Assembly (NCBI RefSeq): GCF_003018255.1
Contig: NZ_CP027440.1
Direction: 5' to 3' (one strand)
Source: Escherichia coli
GTDB lineage: Bacteria; Pseudomonadota; Gammaproteobacteria; Enterobacterales; Enterobacteriaceae
Length of the DNA stretch: 64,000 bases
The notes under the pieces were generated by a model. The model did no database searches. It saw nothing but the letters and a program-made list of their open reading frames with translations, and had not been told where the DNA came from. How positions within the stretch are numbered: position 1 is the stretch's first letter; each line of letters opens with the position of its first letter. The position numbers and the translations under genes were made by a program. This document shows positions 9,766 to 52,195 of this stretch, one piece after another.

Positions 9766-10908
9766 TTAGCGGTATTGCTTCAGCACCGCGCGACCCAGCG
9801 TCAGGATCTGCATTTCGTCAGATCCCCCGGAAACGCGGTCTACACGCAGGTCACGCCAGAAGCGGCTGATGCGGTGGTTGCCCGCAATCCCGACACCGCC
9901 CAGCACCTGCATTGCGCTATCCACCACTTCAAATGCCGCATTGGCGCAGAAGTATTTGCACATCGCTGCATCGCCAGAGGTGATGGTGCCGTTGTCTGCT
10001 TTCCACGCTGCTTCATACAGCATGTTTTTCATGGAGTTTAATTTGATCGCCATGTGGGCGAATTTTTCCTGAATCAACTGGAAACGACCAATAGCCTCGC
10101 CAAACTGCACGCGCTGGTTGGCGTAGCGCGCCGCATCTTCAAAGGCGCACATCGCCGTACCGTAGTTGGTCAGGGCTACCAGGAAACGTTCATGGTCGAA
10201 CTCTTCTTTGACGCGGTTAAAGCCGTTACCTTCCCGACCGAACATGTCTTTCTCGTCCAGTTCCACGTCGTCAAAAGTGATTTCACAGCAGCTATCCATA
10301 CGCAGACCGAGCTTTTCAAGTTTGGTCACTTTGATGCCCGGTTTGCTCATATCAACAAACCATTCGGTGTAGACAGGTTTGTCCGGAGAAGCCCCGTCGC
10401 GCGCCATCACCACGATGTACGGGGTGTAGGCGCTACTGGTAATAAAACACTTACTACCATTAAGATAAATCTTACCATTTCTACGGGTATAAGTCGTTTT
10501 CAGGCTACCCACGTCGGAGCCTGCGCCCGGTTCGGTAATTGCTGAGTTCCACATCTGCTTACCGGTGCCGCGGAAAGCCATGATCTTGTCGATCTGCTCT
10601 TGCGTACCTTCACGCAGGAAGGTGTTAAACCCGCCCGGTAACTGATACAGCACGTAAGTTGGCGCTCCCAGACGACCCAGTTCCATCCACACGGCGGCGA
10701 GAGTAACAAACCCCGCGTCCAGACCACCGTGTTCTTCCGGGATCAGCAGACTGTCGATACCCATATCCGCCAGGGCTTTGACAAAACGTTCCGGGTAGAC
10801 GCTGTCACGGTCGCACTCGGCAAAATAGGCCTCCCAGTTTTCGCTGGCCATCAGTTCGCGGATACCGGCGACAAACAGTTCCTGCTCATCATTTAAATTA
10901 AAATCCAT
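9766..10908 (-). CDS. caiA: crotonobetainyl-CoA reductase (acyl-CoA dehydrogenase family)
   Basis: 380-aa [32 protein letters not shown]... with acyl-CoA dehydrogenase fold. Confidence 0.95.
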
Positions 10909-28713: not shown

Positions 28714-28802
28714 GTGTAGGCCTGATAAGACGCGGCCCGCGTCGCATCAGGCAATCGGCGCAAAATTGCCGGATGCGGCGTGAACGCCTTCTCCGGCCTA
28801 CC
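28714..28802. repeat. pair of inverted REP elements filling the djlA-rluA intergenic region
   Basis: gtgtaggcctgataagacgcggcccgcgtcgcatcaggc and tgccggatgcggcgtgaacgccttctccggcctacc. Confidence 0.75.
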
Positions 28803-35698: not shown

Positions 35699-35862
35699 TG
35701 CCGGATGCGCTTTGCTTATCCGGCCTACAAAATCGCAGCGTGTAGGCCTGATAAGACGCGTCAGCGTCGCATCAGGCGGTGAATGCCGGATGCGCTTTGC
35801 TTATCCGGCCTACAAAATCACAGCGTGTAGGCCTGATAAGACGCGTCAGCGTCGCATCAGGC
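35699..35862. repeat. two tandem BIME units (85-bp period), each a REP plus inverted REP
   Basis: Unit tgccggatgcgctttgcttatccggcctacaaaatc(g/a)cagcgtgtaggcctgataagacgcgtcagcgtcgcatcaggc occurs at about 35699 and 35784. Confidence 0.85.
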
Positions 35863-41278: not shown

Positions 41279-41977
41279 CTAACCCGTAATCCCCAATATT
41301 GCCGAAGCACTCGCCTTACCGCTCAACAACTCATCGGTCATACCCTGCCAGGCGATGCGCCCGTCGGCGACCACCACCGAGCGCGTGGCGATCCGCGCCG
41401 CATCTTCCACACTGTGCGACACCATCAATAGCGTCATTTTTTGCTGTTGGCAGCTCGTGCTCACCAGCGTCAACATCTCCTGACGTAACGCCGGATCGAG
41501 CGCAGAGAACGGTTCATCGAGCAATAAAATCGGCTGTTCGCGCACCAGACAACGCGCTAACGCCACGCGCTGTCGCTGACCGCCAGAAAGCTCGCCCGGT
41601 AAGCGCGCCATTAAATTATCAATCCCCATCTGACGGGCAATCGCGTGCATTTTCTCCTGTTGTGCCGCGTTCAGCTTCAATCCTGGATTAAGCCCCAGCC
41701 CGATGTTCTGCGCGACCGTCAGGTGACTGAACAGGTTGTTTTCCTGAAACAGCATCGACACCGGACGGCGTGACGGCGGCGTCGTGGTGTGATCAACGCC
41801 GTCGATAGTCAGCGAACCGCTGGCTGGCGTCAGAAAACCGGCGATCAAATTCAGCAGGGTACTTTTACCCGCGCCGCTTGGCCCGAGGATCGCCACCTGC
41901 TCGCTGCGTTCCACCGTTAAGCTAAAACGCATCGGCAAATGGTGGTAAAGCCAGGTGATATCAGTCAGTTTTAACAT
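41279..41977 (-). CDS. thiQ: thiamine ABC transporter ATP-binding protein
   Basis: ORF 41279..41998; Walker [10 protein letters not shown] and ABC signature [13 protein letters not shown]; start taken at [13 protein letters not shown]. Confidence 0.93.
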
Positions 41978-43571
41978 TTCGCCCCGGTAGTTTTTCAATC
42001 ACGGTAAACAGCAGAAAACAGAGTAGCAGCAGAATTAACGCGGTGACCGCGCCGTCCTGGCTGCGATAGGAGCCAATTTGCTGGTAGAGATAAAACGGCA
42101 GGGTGCGGAAATCATCGTTACCGAACAACGCCACCACGCCAAAATCACCAATCGATAGCACACAAGCAAAGGCCAGTGCCTGCGCCAGTGGGCGTTTAAG
42201 GGCGCGCAGCTCCACCACTTTTAAGCGTGACCAGCCTTCAATGCCCAGCGACTGACACAACATACTGTAACGCGCGGTGATATCGCGCATCGGGTTTTCC
42301 AGCACTTTCAGCGCATAAGGGATCGCCATTAACGCATTGGTGAAAATCACAATGCCGTCAGCAGATTGTGGCAGGCCGATAGTGTTGTTGAGCAGTAAAA
42401 AGAAGCCGGTAGCCAGCACAATCCCCGGCATCGCGAGGATCAACATGCCGCTCATCTCCAGCGCCTGACCCGCCAGCATTTTCTGCCGCGCCCGCAGTTC
42501 GCGACTGCTCCATAGCAGCATCATGGTCAGCACTACGCATAATACGCCTGCCGCCAGCGCAATACGCAACGAGGTCCACAGCGCCTGCCACAGCACCGGC
42601 TGCGCCAGCACTTCCGGCAACTGGCGATTTATCCCATCGACGAGCACCGCCAGTAACGGTGGCAGCAACAGCAACAGCGCCAGCACAATTAACACCGTGT
42701 CGCAAATGCGGCTATGCAGACGATCGTCCGGGTCGCGCCAGCCTTGCAGCAGCGTAGTGCCGGGCGCAATGGCCTTACTCAATCGCTGACTCAACAGCAC
42801 CAGCCCAAGGCAACACACCATCTGGATCAGCGCCAGCATCGCCGCGCGGGCAGGATCGTAGTCGTAACTCAGCGCCTGATAAATAGCCAGCTCGATAGTC
42901 GTCGCTTGCGGACCGCCGCCCAGCGACAACACGGTGGCGAAGCTGGCGAAACAGAGCATAAAGATAAGCGCGGCAACCGGCGGGATTTGTCGCCGTAACC
43001 ACGGCCATTCGACGAAGCGGAAAAAATGCCAGCCGCGCATCCCAAGCTGGGCGGCAAGCTGACGTTGTTCCCCGGGAATGTTTTCCAGTGCCTGGAGTAA
43101 TAAGCGGCTCGCCATCGGCAGATTAAAAAATACATGCGCCAGCAAAATGCCTTGCAGGCCGTAGGGCGAAAACGTCCACTCCAGACCAAGCGATTGCCAG
43201 AGCGATGCCAGCCAGCCCTGGCGACCATAGACGCTAAGAATGCCGAAAACAGCAACCAGCACCGGGAGGATCAAGGTCATGGCACACAGACGCAACAGCG
43301 CCAGCCGTCCTGGAAAGCGCCTGCGGTAGAGGGCGCGGGCAAGGAATATCGCGGGCACGACAGAGAGCAGCGCCGAGAGAAACGCCTGCCAGAAGGAGAA
43401 GCGCACCACATGCCACAGGTAGCTGTCCTGCCAGATTGCCACCCAGTCACCCTGCGGCGCGTTCCACCACAGGGCGAGAAACGCAGCCAGTGCAACCGCC
43501 ACCACCAGCGTGGCGGCGCTTATTCCTGGAATTAACCAGCCGGGAATTAACGGCTGACGGCGCGTTGCCAT
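41961..43571 (-). CDS. thiP: thiamine ABC transporter permease
   Basis: 536-aa polytopic ORF overlapping thiQ and thiB. Confidence 0.93.
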
Positions 43572-44530
43572 TCGCTAATCCATGCCTGACGTTGTGCCGC
43601 CACTTCGGCTGGCGTGAACTCCAGCGTGGTTGCCGGTTTGGTCAATTGTTCAAAACCGGCAGGCAGCGTGACGTTTGCCACCGGATACATCCAGTTGCCG
43701 GTTGGGATCGCATTCTGAAAAGCCGGAGAAACCATAAACTGGAGAAATTTTTGCGCCAGCTCCGGCTGCTTGCTGGCAGCGGTGCGGGCGGCGACTTCCA
43801 CCTGCAGATAGTGACCTTCGCTGAAGTTTGCGGCGGCGTAGTTATCTTTCTTCTCTTCGAGAATGTGATAAGCCGGAGAGGTGGTGTAACTCAGTACCAG
43901 ATCGCTTTCACCTTTTAAAAACAGGCCGTAGGCTTCGCTCCAGCCTTTGGTGACCGTGACCGTTTTCTTCGCCAGTTTCTGCCAGGCTTGTGGGGCGTCA
44001 TCGCCATAGACTTTTTGCATCCACAACAGCAGGCCCAGCCCCGGCGTACTGGTGCGCGGATCCTGATAAATCACCCGCCAGTTTTGATCGCTCTCAACAA
44101 GCTCTTTCAGGCTTTGCGGCGGATTTTTCAGTTTGTTCTTGTCATAGACGAAGGCGAAATAGCCGTAATCAAACGGTACGAAAGTGTCATTTTTCCAGCC
44201 GCCGGGAACGTTAACGGCATCCGCTGCCACGCCGCTTTTGGCAAATAGTCCGGTTTTACTGGCGGCGTCTAACAGGTTGTTATCCAGCCCCAGCACCACA
44301 TCGGCTTTACTGTTTTTGCCTTCCATCCGCAGACGGTTGAGCAGCGAAACGCCATCTTCCAGCGCCACCAGTTTCAGTTCGCAGTTACAGTCGGCTTCAA
44401 AAGCTTTTTTGATCTTTGGACCAGGCCCCCAGTCGGCGGCGAAGGAATCGTAGGTATAAACAGTCAGAACGGGTTTAGCGAAAACGGGCGCTGTGCACAG
44501 CAACAGCAAGGGGAGACATTTTTTTAACAC
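43547..44530 (-). CDS. thiB: thiamine-binding periplasmic protein
   Basis: ORF 43547..44542; signal peptide LKKCLPLLLLCTAPVFA; GTG start assumed at 44530 (327 aa). Confidence 0.9.
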   Translation of the reverse strand: MLKKCLPLLLLCTAPVFAKPVLTVYTYDSFAADWGPGPKIKKAFEADCNCELKLVALEDGVSLLNRLRMEGKNSKADVVLGLDNNLLDAASKTGLFAKSGVAADAVNVPGGWKNDTFVPFDYGYFAFVYDKNKLKNPPQSLKELVESDQNWRVIYQDPRTSTPGLGLLLWMQKVYGDDAPQAWQKLAKKTVTVTKGWSEAYGLFLKGESDLVLSYTTSPAYHILEEKKDNYAAANFSEGHYLQVEVAARTAASKQPELAQKFLQFMVSPAFQNAIPTGNWMYPVANVTLPAGFEQLTKPATTLEFTPAEVAAQRQAWISEWQRAVSR

Positions 44531-44565
44531 TTTGCACCTCAAAAAAGAGTGGCAAAGGACTTGAG

Positions 44566-44658
44566 AAGGAGCCTCAAATCCCTTCGCCGGCGTTATCCGG
44601 ATCAGGTTCGACGGGTATTTTCTCAGCGCACGCGTCTGCGTGGCACCCCGTTGAGAAC
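44566..44658 (-). ncRNA. sroA: TPP riboswitch (THI element) in the thiBPQ leader; region of the SroA sRNA
   Basis: Minus strand reads ...ggggtgccacgcagacgcgtgcgctgagaaaatacccgtcgaacctgatccggataacgccggcgaagggatttgagg..., carrying the conserved CUGAGA and ACCUGAUC.GGAUAA.GCC.GCG.AGGGA thi-box motifs. Confidence 0.85.
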
Positions 44659-44693
44659 GGCGTTAGTGTAGTGATTTTGTTATCAACCAGCAA

Positions 44694-46349
44694 TCATGGA
44701 TCCGGCGGCGCAAACCACGCTGATTTAAAATCGAACCAGCCGAGGGTATTCATACGCAGGCCGCGCATACTGCGTTGCCCCTGAATGATCAGCCAGTGGT
44801 GGATAAGCGGCACCATTGCTTTGCTGGCGACCAGTTGCTGGCACCAGTTCGCCAGGTTTATTTCGCCATTGCGCCAGCGGGCGGCGTCGGCTTGCCAGTC
44901 GATCGGAATACAGTGTTGTAGCAGCGGCACCTCGCACAGGTGCGCGAATAGCGAAAAATCCAGCGGCAGCGTAAAGTTGGCGCTGTTAAGCCAGATATCG
45001 CTCTCGATCTCTCCTTCATGCCACTGATCGTAGCTGATCTCTTTGATTTCCAGCGTGACCTGGTGACTTGCCAGAATCTGCTGCATGATCCCGGCAATCA
45101 CCCTATGCTCACTGTGATCCTGATAAAAGGTCAGGGTGAGGCTTTCCAGACCAGCCGGTTTTTCGCTCTTTATGGTGCGGGTATGGTGCCAACGGGGAAG
45201 CAGCCCATAGGCCGGAAACCACAACTGCTGGTACTGTTCCTCGGCGAAATAAACCAGATTGGTCGGCGAAAGCACATAGCTTATCCAGTCTCTGACTTGC
45301 TGATTCGCCCCGCGATGGGTACGGCTGTCGAACAGTAAATAGTAACAACCTTCTTCAAGGCGGCTTTCAATCTCTTTTTCCTCGTCTTGCGGTCCTTTCA
45401 GCATCAGGCCTCCCGCGGGGTCATCAGCAATTTCCGGCAAGACCCAGACGTTAACTTCGTCGATTAATGCCCGATAACCAAAGAAGTCGTCGAATGCCTG
45501 AATTTTCAGTTGATTGCTGCTGTTGCGGATCACCGCATAAGGACCCGTTCCGATGGGATGGCTGGCAAAGTTGCTGAGGGTTTCCCATTCGCGCGGCAGG
45601 ATCATCGCCGGAACTTGCCCCAGCAGTAACGGTAACCAGCGGTCCGGTTGCGTGAGATGGATATCCAGCGTCCAGGGCGTCGGCGACACAATGTCAGCAA
45701 TATGCGAATAGAGCGGCAGCGTATTGATTCGTTTTAAAGAGGCGATCACGTCGTCCATTTCCAGTTCACGACCATGATGAAAATGGACTCCTGGACGCAA
45801 AAAGAAACGCCAGTGAAGCGGTAAAATTTGCTGCCAGTGGTGGGCGATGTCCGCTTCCAGTTCCCCATTTTCCTCATTTATGCGCGTTAGCGAACTGAAG
45901 ATTTGCCGGGCGATATGGGTTTCGGAACGACGCAATGCACTGCCGGGCAGCAGATTACGCAACGGACGATAGTAGAGAACGCGCAGGATGTGCCGCCCCT
46001 GGCGGAAGCTGCGTCCCAGATGAGAAACCAACATTTGCCGCACAGCCGCTTTGTCGCCAACCAGTTGCACCAGTTGATCGATACGATCCTGCTCCAGCAG
46101 GTCCTCTGCTCGCTGTTGCTGAAGCGCCAGCCCGGTATAGAGGAATGTCAGACGCGAGCGTTTGCCGCGCCCGACTTCCGCTTCCCACGTCAGCCAGCCG
46201 CGATCCTGCATGGTGTTGAGCAGGGTGCGCATATGACGACGCGAGCAGCTCAATAACGCTGCCAGTTCGTTGAGCGTCGTGTCCTGCGATTTACCCTCGC
46301 AGCATTGCCACAGGCGGATGAACTGTTGTTGCAGACGAGCAGATGGCAT
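44694..46349 (-). CDS. sgrR: transcriptional activator of sgrS (solute-binding-protein-like domain with N-terminal HTH)
   Basis: ORF 44694..46370; start taken at [33 protein letters not shown] (551 aa). Confidence 0.93.
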
Positions 46350-46416: not shown

Positions 46417-46646
46417 GATGAAGCAAGGAGGTGCCTCATGCGTCAGTTTTATCAGCACTATTTTACCGCGACAGCGAAGTTGTGCTGGTTGCGTTGGTTA
46501 AGCGTCCCACAACGATTAACCATGCTTGAAGAACTGATGCAATGGGAGGGGAGTCATTCTGACTACTGATTTGCGGACATCATGTGTGACTGAGTATTGG
46601 TGTTAATCGCCACGCCAGCAGTGATTATCTGCTGGCTTTTTTCTTT
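46417..46646 (+). ncRNA. sgrS: dual-function small RNA SgrS (glucose-phosphate stress)
   Basis: Begins gatgaagcaagg...; contains the sgrT ORF, the conserved ptsG-pairing region (gtgtgactgagtattggtg) and a terminal hairpin gccagcag-tgattat-ctgctggc plus T-run. Confidence 0.85.
46438..46569 (+). CDS. sgrT: 43-aa peptide encoded within SgrS
   Basis: C-terminal 43 aa of ORF 46270..46569, MRQFYQHYFTATAKLCWLRWLSVPQRLTMLEELMQWEGSHSDY, preceded by aggag. Confidence 0.85.
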   Translation: MRQFYQHYFTATAKLCWLRWLSVPQRLTMLEELMQWEGSHSDY

Positions 46647-46676: not shown

Positions 46677-48693
<2,017 letters not shown>

Positions 48694-51358: not shown

Positions 51359-51404
51359 GGTTTGGGTCCTTGTCTCTTTTTGAGCGCCTCGCTTCGGGCA
51401 TAAA

Positions 51405-51433
51405 AAAACCCGCGCAATGGCGCGGGTTTTTTG
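51405..51433 (-). terminator. leu attenuator terminator hairpin (cccgcgc-loop-gcgcggg flanked by T runs)
   Basis: GC-rich stem-loop followed by a U-run on the minus strand, between leuL and leuA. Confidence 0.8.
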
Positions 51434-51450
51434 TTTGACTGAGTGCTGAC

Positions 51451-51537
51451 TTAATTCTGAATGCCGCTCACCAGTCTACCGCGCAAAGAAGATGCGTTTA
51501 GTAGTAGTAGACCGATAAAGCGAACGATGTGAGTCAT
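51451..51537 (-). CDS. leuL: leu operon leader peptide (four consecutive Leu codons)
   Basis: Last 28 codons of minus ORF 51451..51642: [28 protein letters not shown]. Confidence 0.85.
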
Positions 51538-52195
51538 TAAATCAGCTCCAGATGAATGCGATATGCTTTTAGAGTTACTGGATACCAAAACGGATGTCAA
51601 CCCTGATGCAACAAAAACGTCCAGCCAGCGTGAGTTCTGCATCCGTCAAATTAGCTAATTGTGCTGCGGTGGTTAAAACAAGCGATATTAATTTCTGCTT
51701 AACCACCGCCGCTTTTCATCGGTTGACATATTTCAGAATAAATTTTTGCATCTAATCGACGAGGGAAAGGGGGATAAAATGCACGCGTTACAAAACCTAT
51801 CCTGATGATTTGTATTGAATTATATGTATTGCGAATTTTTTGATATTCATTTGGTGAATATTATTGATCAATTAATGTTAAGAATTAAAACATTAAACAT
51901 ATAAATTAATTATTAAAAAAGCACATTTAATCCATTTTGTGGATGATTGAGTATTCGTGGTAGTTATGATTAGATTGTTTTCGCAACAAAAACATTATGG
52001 ATTATTATGCTGTGGTAAATGACGCTTTCCACGGCAATGGATTCTGTTTTTATCAGAACCCGTATCTTTATGTTTTCCTAATTTTACTCATTTTCCTTTT
52101 TCTTATTTTATATGCATGATAAATCATATTCTCGAGGATTATTTCTCTGCATTCCAATAAGGGAAAGGGAGTTAAGTGTGACAGTGGAGTTAAGT
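51538..52195. promoter_or_regulatory. AT-rich leuL-leuO intergenic region (divergent promoters)
   Basis: About 660 bp with long A/T tracts (e.g. ttaatgttaagaattaaaacattaaacatataaattaattattaaaaaag); this locus is a known H-NS-silenced region. Confidence 0.6.

Follow-up and report, generated by a model that had tools for sequence, protein, structure and literature searches.

What occupies the interval between sgrR and the thiamine transport genes on the minus strand of this Escherichia coli window (the whole stretch of 64,000 nucleotides that was analysed), and is thiamine transport controlled by an RNA encoded there? A preliminary description had proposed a TPP riboswitch ahead of thiBPQ, recognized by a THI-box string (ggggtgcc ... 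ctgaga ... acctgatccggataacgccggcgaaggga) and to be checked by an Rfam covariance-model scan of the minus strand. The string was found on that strand exactly as described, and the scan was positive, with the score given below. The element is almost certainly the E. coli thiB (tbpA) TPP riboswitch, the 5' leader of thiBPQ, which is the operon for the thiamine/TPP ABC transporter; beyond being similar to the K-12 thiB/tbpA riboswitch, it is that very element. It is already known and annotated in public genomes, and there is no new biology in it; the preliminary description had itself called it established biology, and RefSeq/PGAP already labels the identical sequence as a TPP riboswitch. Its value for annotation is that it places a structured regulatory RNA between sgrR and thiB, with thiamine/TPP import under direct metabolite control; ORF calling misses the riboswitch, but PGAP and Rfam both catch it.

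The aptamer and its genomic setting

The whole 64-kb window was searched by cmscan against 4227 Rfam families, and six matches were obtained at the gathering threshold. The sole TPP match in the window is RF00059 (TPP riboswitch aptamer) at 44660..44561 on the minus strand, with a score of 66.1 bits against the curated gathering score of 54.3 bits and E = 9.1e-11. The alignment covers the model over its full length (positions 1-105 of 105). It has a deletion in place of the P3a arm, an extension that is missing from all Enterobacterales thiB leaders, and the remainder is aligned with high posterior probability. The pyrimidine-sensing arm (CUGAGA) and the pyrophosphate-sensing arm (ACCUGAUCYGGNUAAYRCCRGCGNAGGGA) are both found verbatim, and helices P1, P2, P3, P4, and P5 can form around a three-way junction, all listed pairs being standard. 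As the preliminary description had noted, this structured RNA lies outside the ORF calls: no ORF of at least 100 aa in the window ORF list overlaps the aptamer, and the plus strand opposite it gave no match to any of the 4227 Rfam families. In the PGAP annotation of strain 104, exactly the same 100 nt are labelled "TPP riboswitch" and are followed by thiB, thiP, and thiQ.

The predicted position ahead of thiBPQ was borne out by equivalog matches to ThiB, ThiP, and ThiQ downstream on the same strand, where all three genes are intact. The 3' end of the aptamer is 31 nt from the GUG of thiB (tbpA; 43547..44530, minus), which encodes a periplasmic thiamine/TPP-binding protein of 327 aa (TIGR01276, 643.5 bits, cut-off 317), followed by the permease gene thiP (41961..43571, minus, 536 aa; NF006953, 1195 bits, cut-off 970) and by thiQ for the ATP-binding subunit (41279..41977, minus, 232 aa; NF008039, 448.8 bits, cut-off 298). 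On the upstream side lies sgrR (46349..44694, minus; NCBIfam equivalog SgrR, 1120 bits, cut-off 476) with its TGA stop codon at 44694-44696.

The transcription start (+1, a G) can be placed at 44658 on the minus strand by homology with the K-12 sroA 5' end at 75608, which is 128 nt upstream of the G of the thiB GUG in leaders that align gap-free; the start lies about 36 nt past the sgrR stop codon. In Salmonella, the start was mapped by 5' RACE to a point about 129 nt ahead of the start codon. A putative -10 hexamer, TACACT (44665..44670, minus; -12..-7 relative to the inferred start), and a putative -35 hexamer, TTGCTG (44688..44693, minus; 3/6 match, 17 nt from the -10 box), were read from the sequence, and the -10 hexamer is invariant in the sampled E. 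coli and E. albertii leaders. A consensus promoter scan of 44300-45000 reported no sigma-70 site, and TTGCTG-17-TACACT was placed from the mapped K-12 transcription start, not from the scan. It is likely the thiB/sroA promoter, and a weak one; a promoter falling below the consensus scan fits the low natural-promoter expression reported by Grondin et al. (PMC11487190). The putative -35 box directly adjoins the sgrR stop codon (44688-44696, minus). A minus-strand scan of 44300-45000 found no terminator-like site between sgrR and the riboswitch, so sgrR read-through transcripts would carry the riboswitch with a long 5' extension. We take it that EcoCyc lists sgrR-sroA-thiBPQ as a transcription unit.

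Other structured RNAs were detected in the window by the same scan. The SgrS small RNA (46417-46643, plus; RF00534, 221.8 bits) is divergent from sgrR, has the sgrT ORF at 46438-46569, and shows a 5-nt deletion near its 5' end relative to the Rfam consensus. The leucine operon leader (51402-51551, minus; RF00512, 143.1 bits) is upstream of leuABCD, an ES003 sRNA match (42-94, plus; 87.4 bits) is identical to the consensus, and two naRNA4/REP-type matches (28719-28798 and 35745-35810, both minus) scored 77.3 and 59.6 bits, the latter just above the gathering score. The window is without setA: from the end of SgrS at 46643 to the leuD stop codon at 46677 there are about 33 nt, whereas in K-12 setA (77621-78799) is located between sgrS/sgrT and leuD. 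The contiguous sgrS-leuD junction occurs in 2159 of 5426 complete E. coli genomes, and the window sgrS allele is about 89% identical to that of genomes with a non-contiguous junction, for example the BL21(DE3)-derived Nico21. This level of sgrS identity between the junction types suggests two old haplotypes.

Architecture and operation of the leader RNA

Positions in the leader are counted here from +1 = 44658, and all features are on the minus strand; the numbering of Berman et al. (PMC10578472) begins two bases further upstream, at 44660. The RF00059 match spans 44561..44660, and the aptamer extends from P1 to P1 at 44573-44655. The P1 5' strand CUCAA (positions 4-8, 44651..44655), invariant in eight Enterobacterales leaders, pairs with the P1 3' strand UUGAG (positions 82-86, 44573..44577), and the latter is shared by P1 and the anti-P1 hairpin. 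P2 consists of positions 9-12 with 44-47, plus U14-A41. The P3 stem-loop (positions 15-33, 44626..44644) pairs 15-21 with 26-33 with one bulged C and carries the apical loop AGAC at 44634-44637. The CUGAGA junction follows at positions 33-38 (44621..44626) and includes G35. The P4/P5 arm occupies positions 53-78 (44581..44606), with P4 formed by 53-55/76-78 and P5 by 59-62/69-72.

The moving part of the switch is the strand UCUCAAGUCCUUUGCC (positions 93-108, 44551..44566), which in the ON state pairs with positions 71-87 as the anti-P1/antisequestering hairpin, and in the OFF state pairs through its 3' part (from 102) with the Shine-Dalgarno (SD)/GUG region. The anti-P1 core is a 10-bp helix of 93-102 with 78-87 (-12.2 kcal/mol). 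The extended anti-P1 helix of 71-87 with 93-108 (-21.3 kcal/mol; all pairs Watson-Crick or G-U wobble) uses up the CUUUGC segment together with the 3' strands of P1, P4, and P5. The sequestering hairpin (44530..44557; 102-107 with 124-129 and 110-112 with 119-121; -11.6 kcal/mol) encloses the SD sequence GAGG (positions 119-122, 44537..44540) and the first base of the GUG start codon (positions 129-131, 44528..44530, from the RefSeq annotation of the identical sequence). Its lower stem CUUUGC/GCAAAG ends on the G of the GUG and is invariant in the eight leaders. All OFF- and ON-state helices form with standard pairs in the window sequence, and mutually exclusive P1, anti-P1, and sequestering helices that involve the SD and the start codon are present. 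The functional unit is the stretch from the transcription start at 44658 to at least the GUG (44528). The span of 44545-44680 given in the preliminary description brackets the aptamer, but its ends are not the functional boundaries: the upper end runs into the promoter, past the transcription start (44658) and the -10 box (44665-44670), and the lower end omits the SD (44537-44540) and the GUG (44528-44530), which are the regulated targets.

In the proposed mechanism, the first ~86 nt would fold into a TPP aptamer of P1-P5 with a short P3 and no P3a arm. TPP binding would stabilize P1, and the conserved UCCUUUGC segment would be freed to pair with the SD and GUG region. With TPP, the strand UCUCAAGUCCUUUGCC would be free, its CUUUGC pairing with GCAAAG at the start codon, and the closed hairpin would bury the SD GAGG and the GUG, leaving no 30S binding and translation off. 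Without TPP, the same strand would invade P1 and P4 to form the anti-P1/antisequestering hairpin, which would destroy the aptamer, remove the 5' half of the sequestering stem, and allow translation. Loss of translation would then bring about a secondary, smaller fall in thiBPQ mRNA. Sensing would take place during transcription, between RNA polymerase pause sites. The aptamer match, helices, gene context, near-identity to K-12, and conservation are from the present analysis, and TPP binding, switch mutants, pausing, and toeprints are from published K-12 work.

The statement in the preliminary description that thiamine transport is riboswitch-controlled is supported by experiment, since the K-12 version, with two loop bases different, represses thiB with TPP: a K-12 thiB reporter is repressed by TPP, and the binding-site mutants G17C (Berman numbering, PMC10578472) and G35C (Grondin numbering, PMC11487190) are constitutively on, G35C abolishing TPP regulation in K-12 (PMC11487190). 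A mutation weakening the sequestering stem also breaks TPP control in K-12. Deletion or randomization of linker nts 95-99 results in a constitutively OFF state (PMC10578472); these nts are UCUCA, window 44566-44562, the same as nts 5-9 on the 5' side of P1. With G121C both expression and regulation are lost, and U130A inactivates translation (PMC11487190). The K-12 landmark residues are in place in the window: G35 at 44624, G121 at 44538, and U130 at 44529, in the middle of the GUG.

Cotranscriptional SHAPE-Seq detected the antisequestering stem at transcript length 100, and the folding paths with and without TPP diverged by length 131-142 (PMC10578472). RNA polymerase pauses at 104, 117, and 136, corresponding to window 44555, 44542, and 44523; complexes at 104 and 117 bind TPP well, while at 136 the anti-P1 stem has folded and binding is poor, the anti-P1 hairpin limiting the sensing window (PMC8609307). 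TPP binding by the K-12 leader was measured with a Kswitch of ~362 nM in EC-117, together with smFRET folding (PMC8609307, PMC11487190), and TPP is sensed more efficiently during transcription than afterwards (PMC11487190). In toeprints TPP prevents 30S subunit binding (PMC11487190). A reporter assay classed an Enterobacter thiBPQ riboswitch as translational.

Equilibrium folding gives a different picture of the leader from that of an open and a closed state. In ensemble folding of 44528-44660 the SD core (G119-G121) is paired with a probability of at least ~0.98 whether the aptamer is enforced or left free, and both the anti-P1 core and the sequestering hairpin occur in the unconstrained MFE structure. 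The open ON state of the window leader was reproduced by neither MFE nor ensemble folding, and ON and OFF were not separated; we therefore claim no thermodynamic switch. The thiB switch is kinetic according to the published cotranscriptional model on which this reading rests, and our own folding agrees with it. An SD that is paired at equilibrium is consistent with the published finding of a basal expression ~6-fold lower with the riboswitch than with the promoter alone, to which TPP adds repression of only ~2.3-fold to 3.9-fold (PMC11487190). The fold energy of the leader is unremarkable against shuffled sequences (z = -1.64) and was not used as evidence.

A different reading would put the main action on transcription, with premature termination (intrinsic or Rho-dependent) in the leader or early thiB taking the place of control of translation initiation. 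In its favor, ChIP-qPCR gave a Rho termination score of 3.0 for thiB, and transcriptional lacZ fusions were repressed by TPP 1.6-fold to 3.9-fold even with an inactive start codon (PMC11487190). The intrinsic form can be rejected: the minus-strand scan of 44300-45000 showed no intrinsic-terminator-like site, the sequestering hairpin is followed by UUAAAAAAAUG, not by a U run, and the K-12 leader, transcribed in vitro in a single round, yielded only the full-length product at all TPP levels. Against the Rho-dependent form, bicyclomycin left TPP repression unchanged, albeit in a short construct, and toeprints show that 30S binding is blocked directly; Grondin et al. considered that the mRNA effect possibly comes from translation inhibition or RNase E and may need codons 5-12 (PMC11487190). 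A mainly transcriptional action is unlikely on this evidence, although Rho dependence of the secondary mRNA-level effect is disputed, with published evidence on both sides.

It has also to be considered whether the main output of the locus is a stable ~93-nt SroA RNA (44566-44658) acting in trans, with cis control of thiB being secondary. The K-12 annotation records the same stretch as the ncRNA sroA (b4762, 75516-75608) between sgrR and thiB, and the window equivalent (44566..44658, minus, via the gap-free alignment) matches this annotated 93-nt RNA in sequence and coordinates with two mismatches; its 3' end at 44566 falls inside the loop of the anti-P1 hairpin. In Salmonella, tigecycline or tetracycline causes a ~100-nt species to build up while tbpA mRNA shows no corresponding change, and deletion of this species reduces survival in a manner complemented from a plasmid, with targets such as pspA/pspB being predicted only. 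Possible multi-level roles were noted by Chauvier 2021 (PMC8609307). However, there is no validated target, the species is not induced by tigecycline in E. coli, and the aptamer and cis switch explain all conserved sequence features, cis regulation having been shown directly in K-12. We consider a predominant trans role quite improbable, and such a role would add to the riboswitch, not replace it.

Conservation and allelic variation

Many RefSeq complete genomes match a 311-nt query around the leader at 100% identity, and the feature line there reads riboswitch, thiB, sgrR. The 133-nt leader (44660-44528) is present in 5398 of 5426 complete E. coli genomes, at an identity of at least 99% in 2885 and of 95-99% in 2513; the commoner allele among complete genomes is that of the window or one within one base of it. 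Between the window and K-12 MG1655, 231 bases align gap-free and the transcribed leader differs only at 44637 and 44636, leaving 129 of 131 leader bases (+1 through GUG) identical. These two positions are the first two bases of the P3 apical tetraloop, which is AGAC in the window and GUAC in K-12. We infer from the K-12 sequence, different at these two P3-loop bases only, that the window allele would bind TPP, and the two-base difference is presumably neutral for function. In the sampled E. coli leader RNAs variation is confined to the P3 apex (AGAC, GUAC, AAAC in two strains, and a 10-nt deletion), and outside it the leader is invariant in the sampled E. coli and E. albertii. The deletion is found in E. 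coli strain H2 (NZ_CP028733.1, locus L125, 183-272), where it removes most of P3 (GGGGUGC/CGUGCGCUGAGA), and PGAP still annotates a TPP riboswitch of 90 nt there. The thiB riboswitch is at present used as a model of a translational riboswitch under kinetic, cotranscriptional control, and natural alleles such as that of the window could serve as ready-made variants for work on cotranscriptional control.

The comparison across genera was based on a MAFFT alignment of eight leaders (two E. coli alleles, E. albertii, Enterobacter, Superficieibacter, Rosenbergiella, and two Photorhabdus). Pairing across the eight leaders is kept at 97.3% for the OFF structure and 98.4% for the ON structure, against 27-58% for controls slid by 1-3 columns, a comparison that favors the structure because it was derived from one of the aligned sequences. 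Counting of pairs in the eight leaders found no compensatory double changes in the expression-platform helices, which are conserved by invariance or by single wobble changes. What these helices display is conserved pairing potential, as judged from sequence, and not proof of covariation, and their comparative support is weaker than that for P3. P1, P2, P4, and P5 never vary among the eight leaders and hence are silent on covariation. P3 changes in both length and sequence between genera with pairing kept (E. coli, E. albertii, Enterobacter, Rosenbergiella, and Photorhabdus), the compensatory pairs having been read by eye because MAFFT does not align P3 structurally. Covariation across the whole RF00059 family is established by Rfam curation.

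Two departures from the common layout were observed among thiB leaders. In Photorhabdus caribbeanensis and P. cinerea (loci L065 and L095) the anti-P1 strand lies ~70 nt further away from the P1 3' strand. These leaders nevertheless keep the switching segments UCCUUUGC and GCAAAGUG, along with the anti-P1 and sequestering strands, and the anti-P1 hairpin would enclose a large loop or additional structure. Citrobacter werkmanii NBRC 105721 (BBMW01000015.1, locus L053, 9750-10001) carries an insert of 139 nt (9766-9904) at the P3 apex, which breaks up its thiB aptamer. As a long hairpin (-65 kcal/mol), this insert makes up a giant P3 extension closed by P2/P3 in the whole-leader MFE structure. 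It looks similar to an ERIC/IRU-type repeat, and the match supporting this is a sub-threshold one to Rfam V_AS5 (51.8 bits vs 96). The insert cuts the TPP score to 50.1, below 54.3, so that the riboswitch would go unnoticed in standard annotation; the anti-P1 strand, the sequestering strand, the SD, and the GUG of C. werkmanii are intact.

A wider survey was made with a DNA pattern of the aptamer core, which matched at least 120 loci across many phyla in species-representative genomes. This pattern is too general and retrieves TPP aptamers of all kinds, and the loci were filtered by tblastn with the window ThiB. A ThiB homologue was found at 34 of the at least 120 loci listed, and in about 28 of them the aptamer core is upstream on the same strand, with 49 to ~210 nt between core and thiB homologue gene in these about 28 among those listed. 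The thiB-linked loci among the matches listed include some from Enterobacterales, Rhizobiales, Paracoccus, spirochaetes, Actinomycetota, Chloroflexota, and Bipolaricaulota, and their counts are those of a sample, not a census. Full-length TPP matches above the Rfam gathering score (54.6-79.8 bits) were obtained for 15 of the 16 thiB-linked loci scanned, and Enterobacterales thiB leaders with a short P3 and no P3a score 65-80 bits.

The confinement of E. coli variation to the P3 apex bears on a joint proposal, namely that the P3-apex polymorphism might tune the speed of cotranscriptional folding and, through it, the TPP set-point of thiamine import between lineages and that the aptamer-containing SroA fragment might act in trans. 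The P3-apex polymorphism and the K-12 sroA annotation are the sole points in its support, and we regard the combination as very improbable. As for a reading of the match as a THI-box look-alike that has decayed or arose by chance and is now functionless in the window strain, the score only ~12 bits above the gathering score and the missing P3a arm of the model could be cited for it, but it is practically inconceivable and is excluded by statistics and conservation: E = 9e-11 for the whole window, a leader carried by 5398 of 5426 genomes and, apart from the P3 apex, unchanging across the sampled E. coli and E. albertii, an intact thiBPQ, and a short P3 without P3a that is common to all Enterobacterales thiB leaders, including the equally short K-12 version, which is functional.

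Comparison with known TPP riboswitches

E. coli has three TPP riboswitches, and the thiB riboswitch is one of them. The closest known system is the K-12 thiB/tbpA riboswitch (SroA; PMC10578472, PMC11487190, PMC8609307), which has the same locus, genes, and transcription start as the window element; the two do not differ in P1, the anti-P1 strand, the sequestering stem, the SD, or the GUG, but in two adjacent P3 apical-loop bases (GUAC in K-12, AGAC in the window). The E. coli thiM riboswitch, for which there is a crystal-structure model, is translational with Rho termination inside the ORF. It belongs to the same aptamer family and resembles the thiB element in the sequestration of the SD upon TPP binding and in an mRNA effect that needs part of the coding region, but its P3 is longer and its expression platform is different: thiB displaces P1 with a strand that repeats the P1 5' sequence (UCUCA). 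The E. coli thiC riboswitch, under dual translational and Rho-dependent control, shares with thiB the TPP aptamer, pause-delimited cotranscriptional sensing, and anti-P1 competition; it differs in being larger and in having Rho-binding determinants within the riboswitch, with a Rho score of 12 vs 3.0 for thiB.

Among the thiB-linked riboswitches of other bacteria (Enterobacter, Superficieibacter, Rosenbergiella, Photorhabdus, Rhizobium, Paracoccus, spirochaetes, Actinomycetota, and Bipolaricaulota), the aptamer is likewise directly upstream of the gene on the same strand, while the length and sequence of P3 vary and linker lengths are between 49 and ~200 nt. The expression platforms resist alignment outside Enterobacterales, whereas within this order the anti-P1 and sequestering strands are also conserved.
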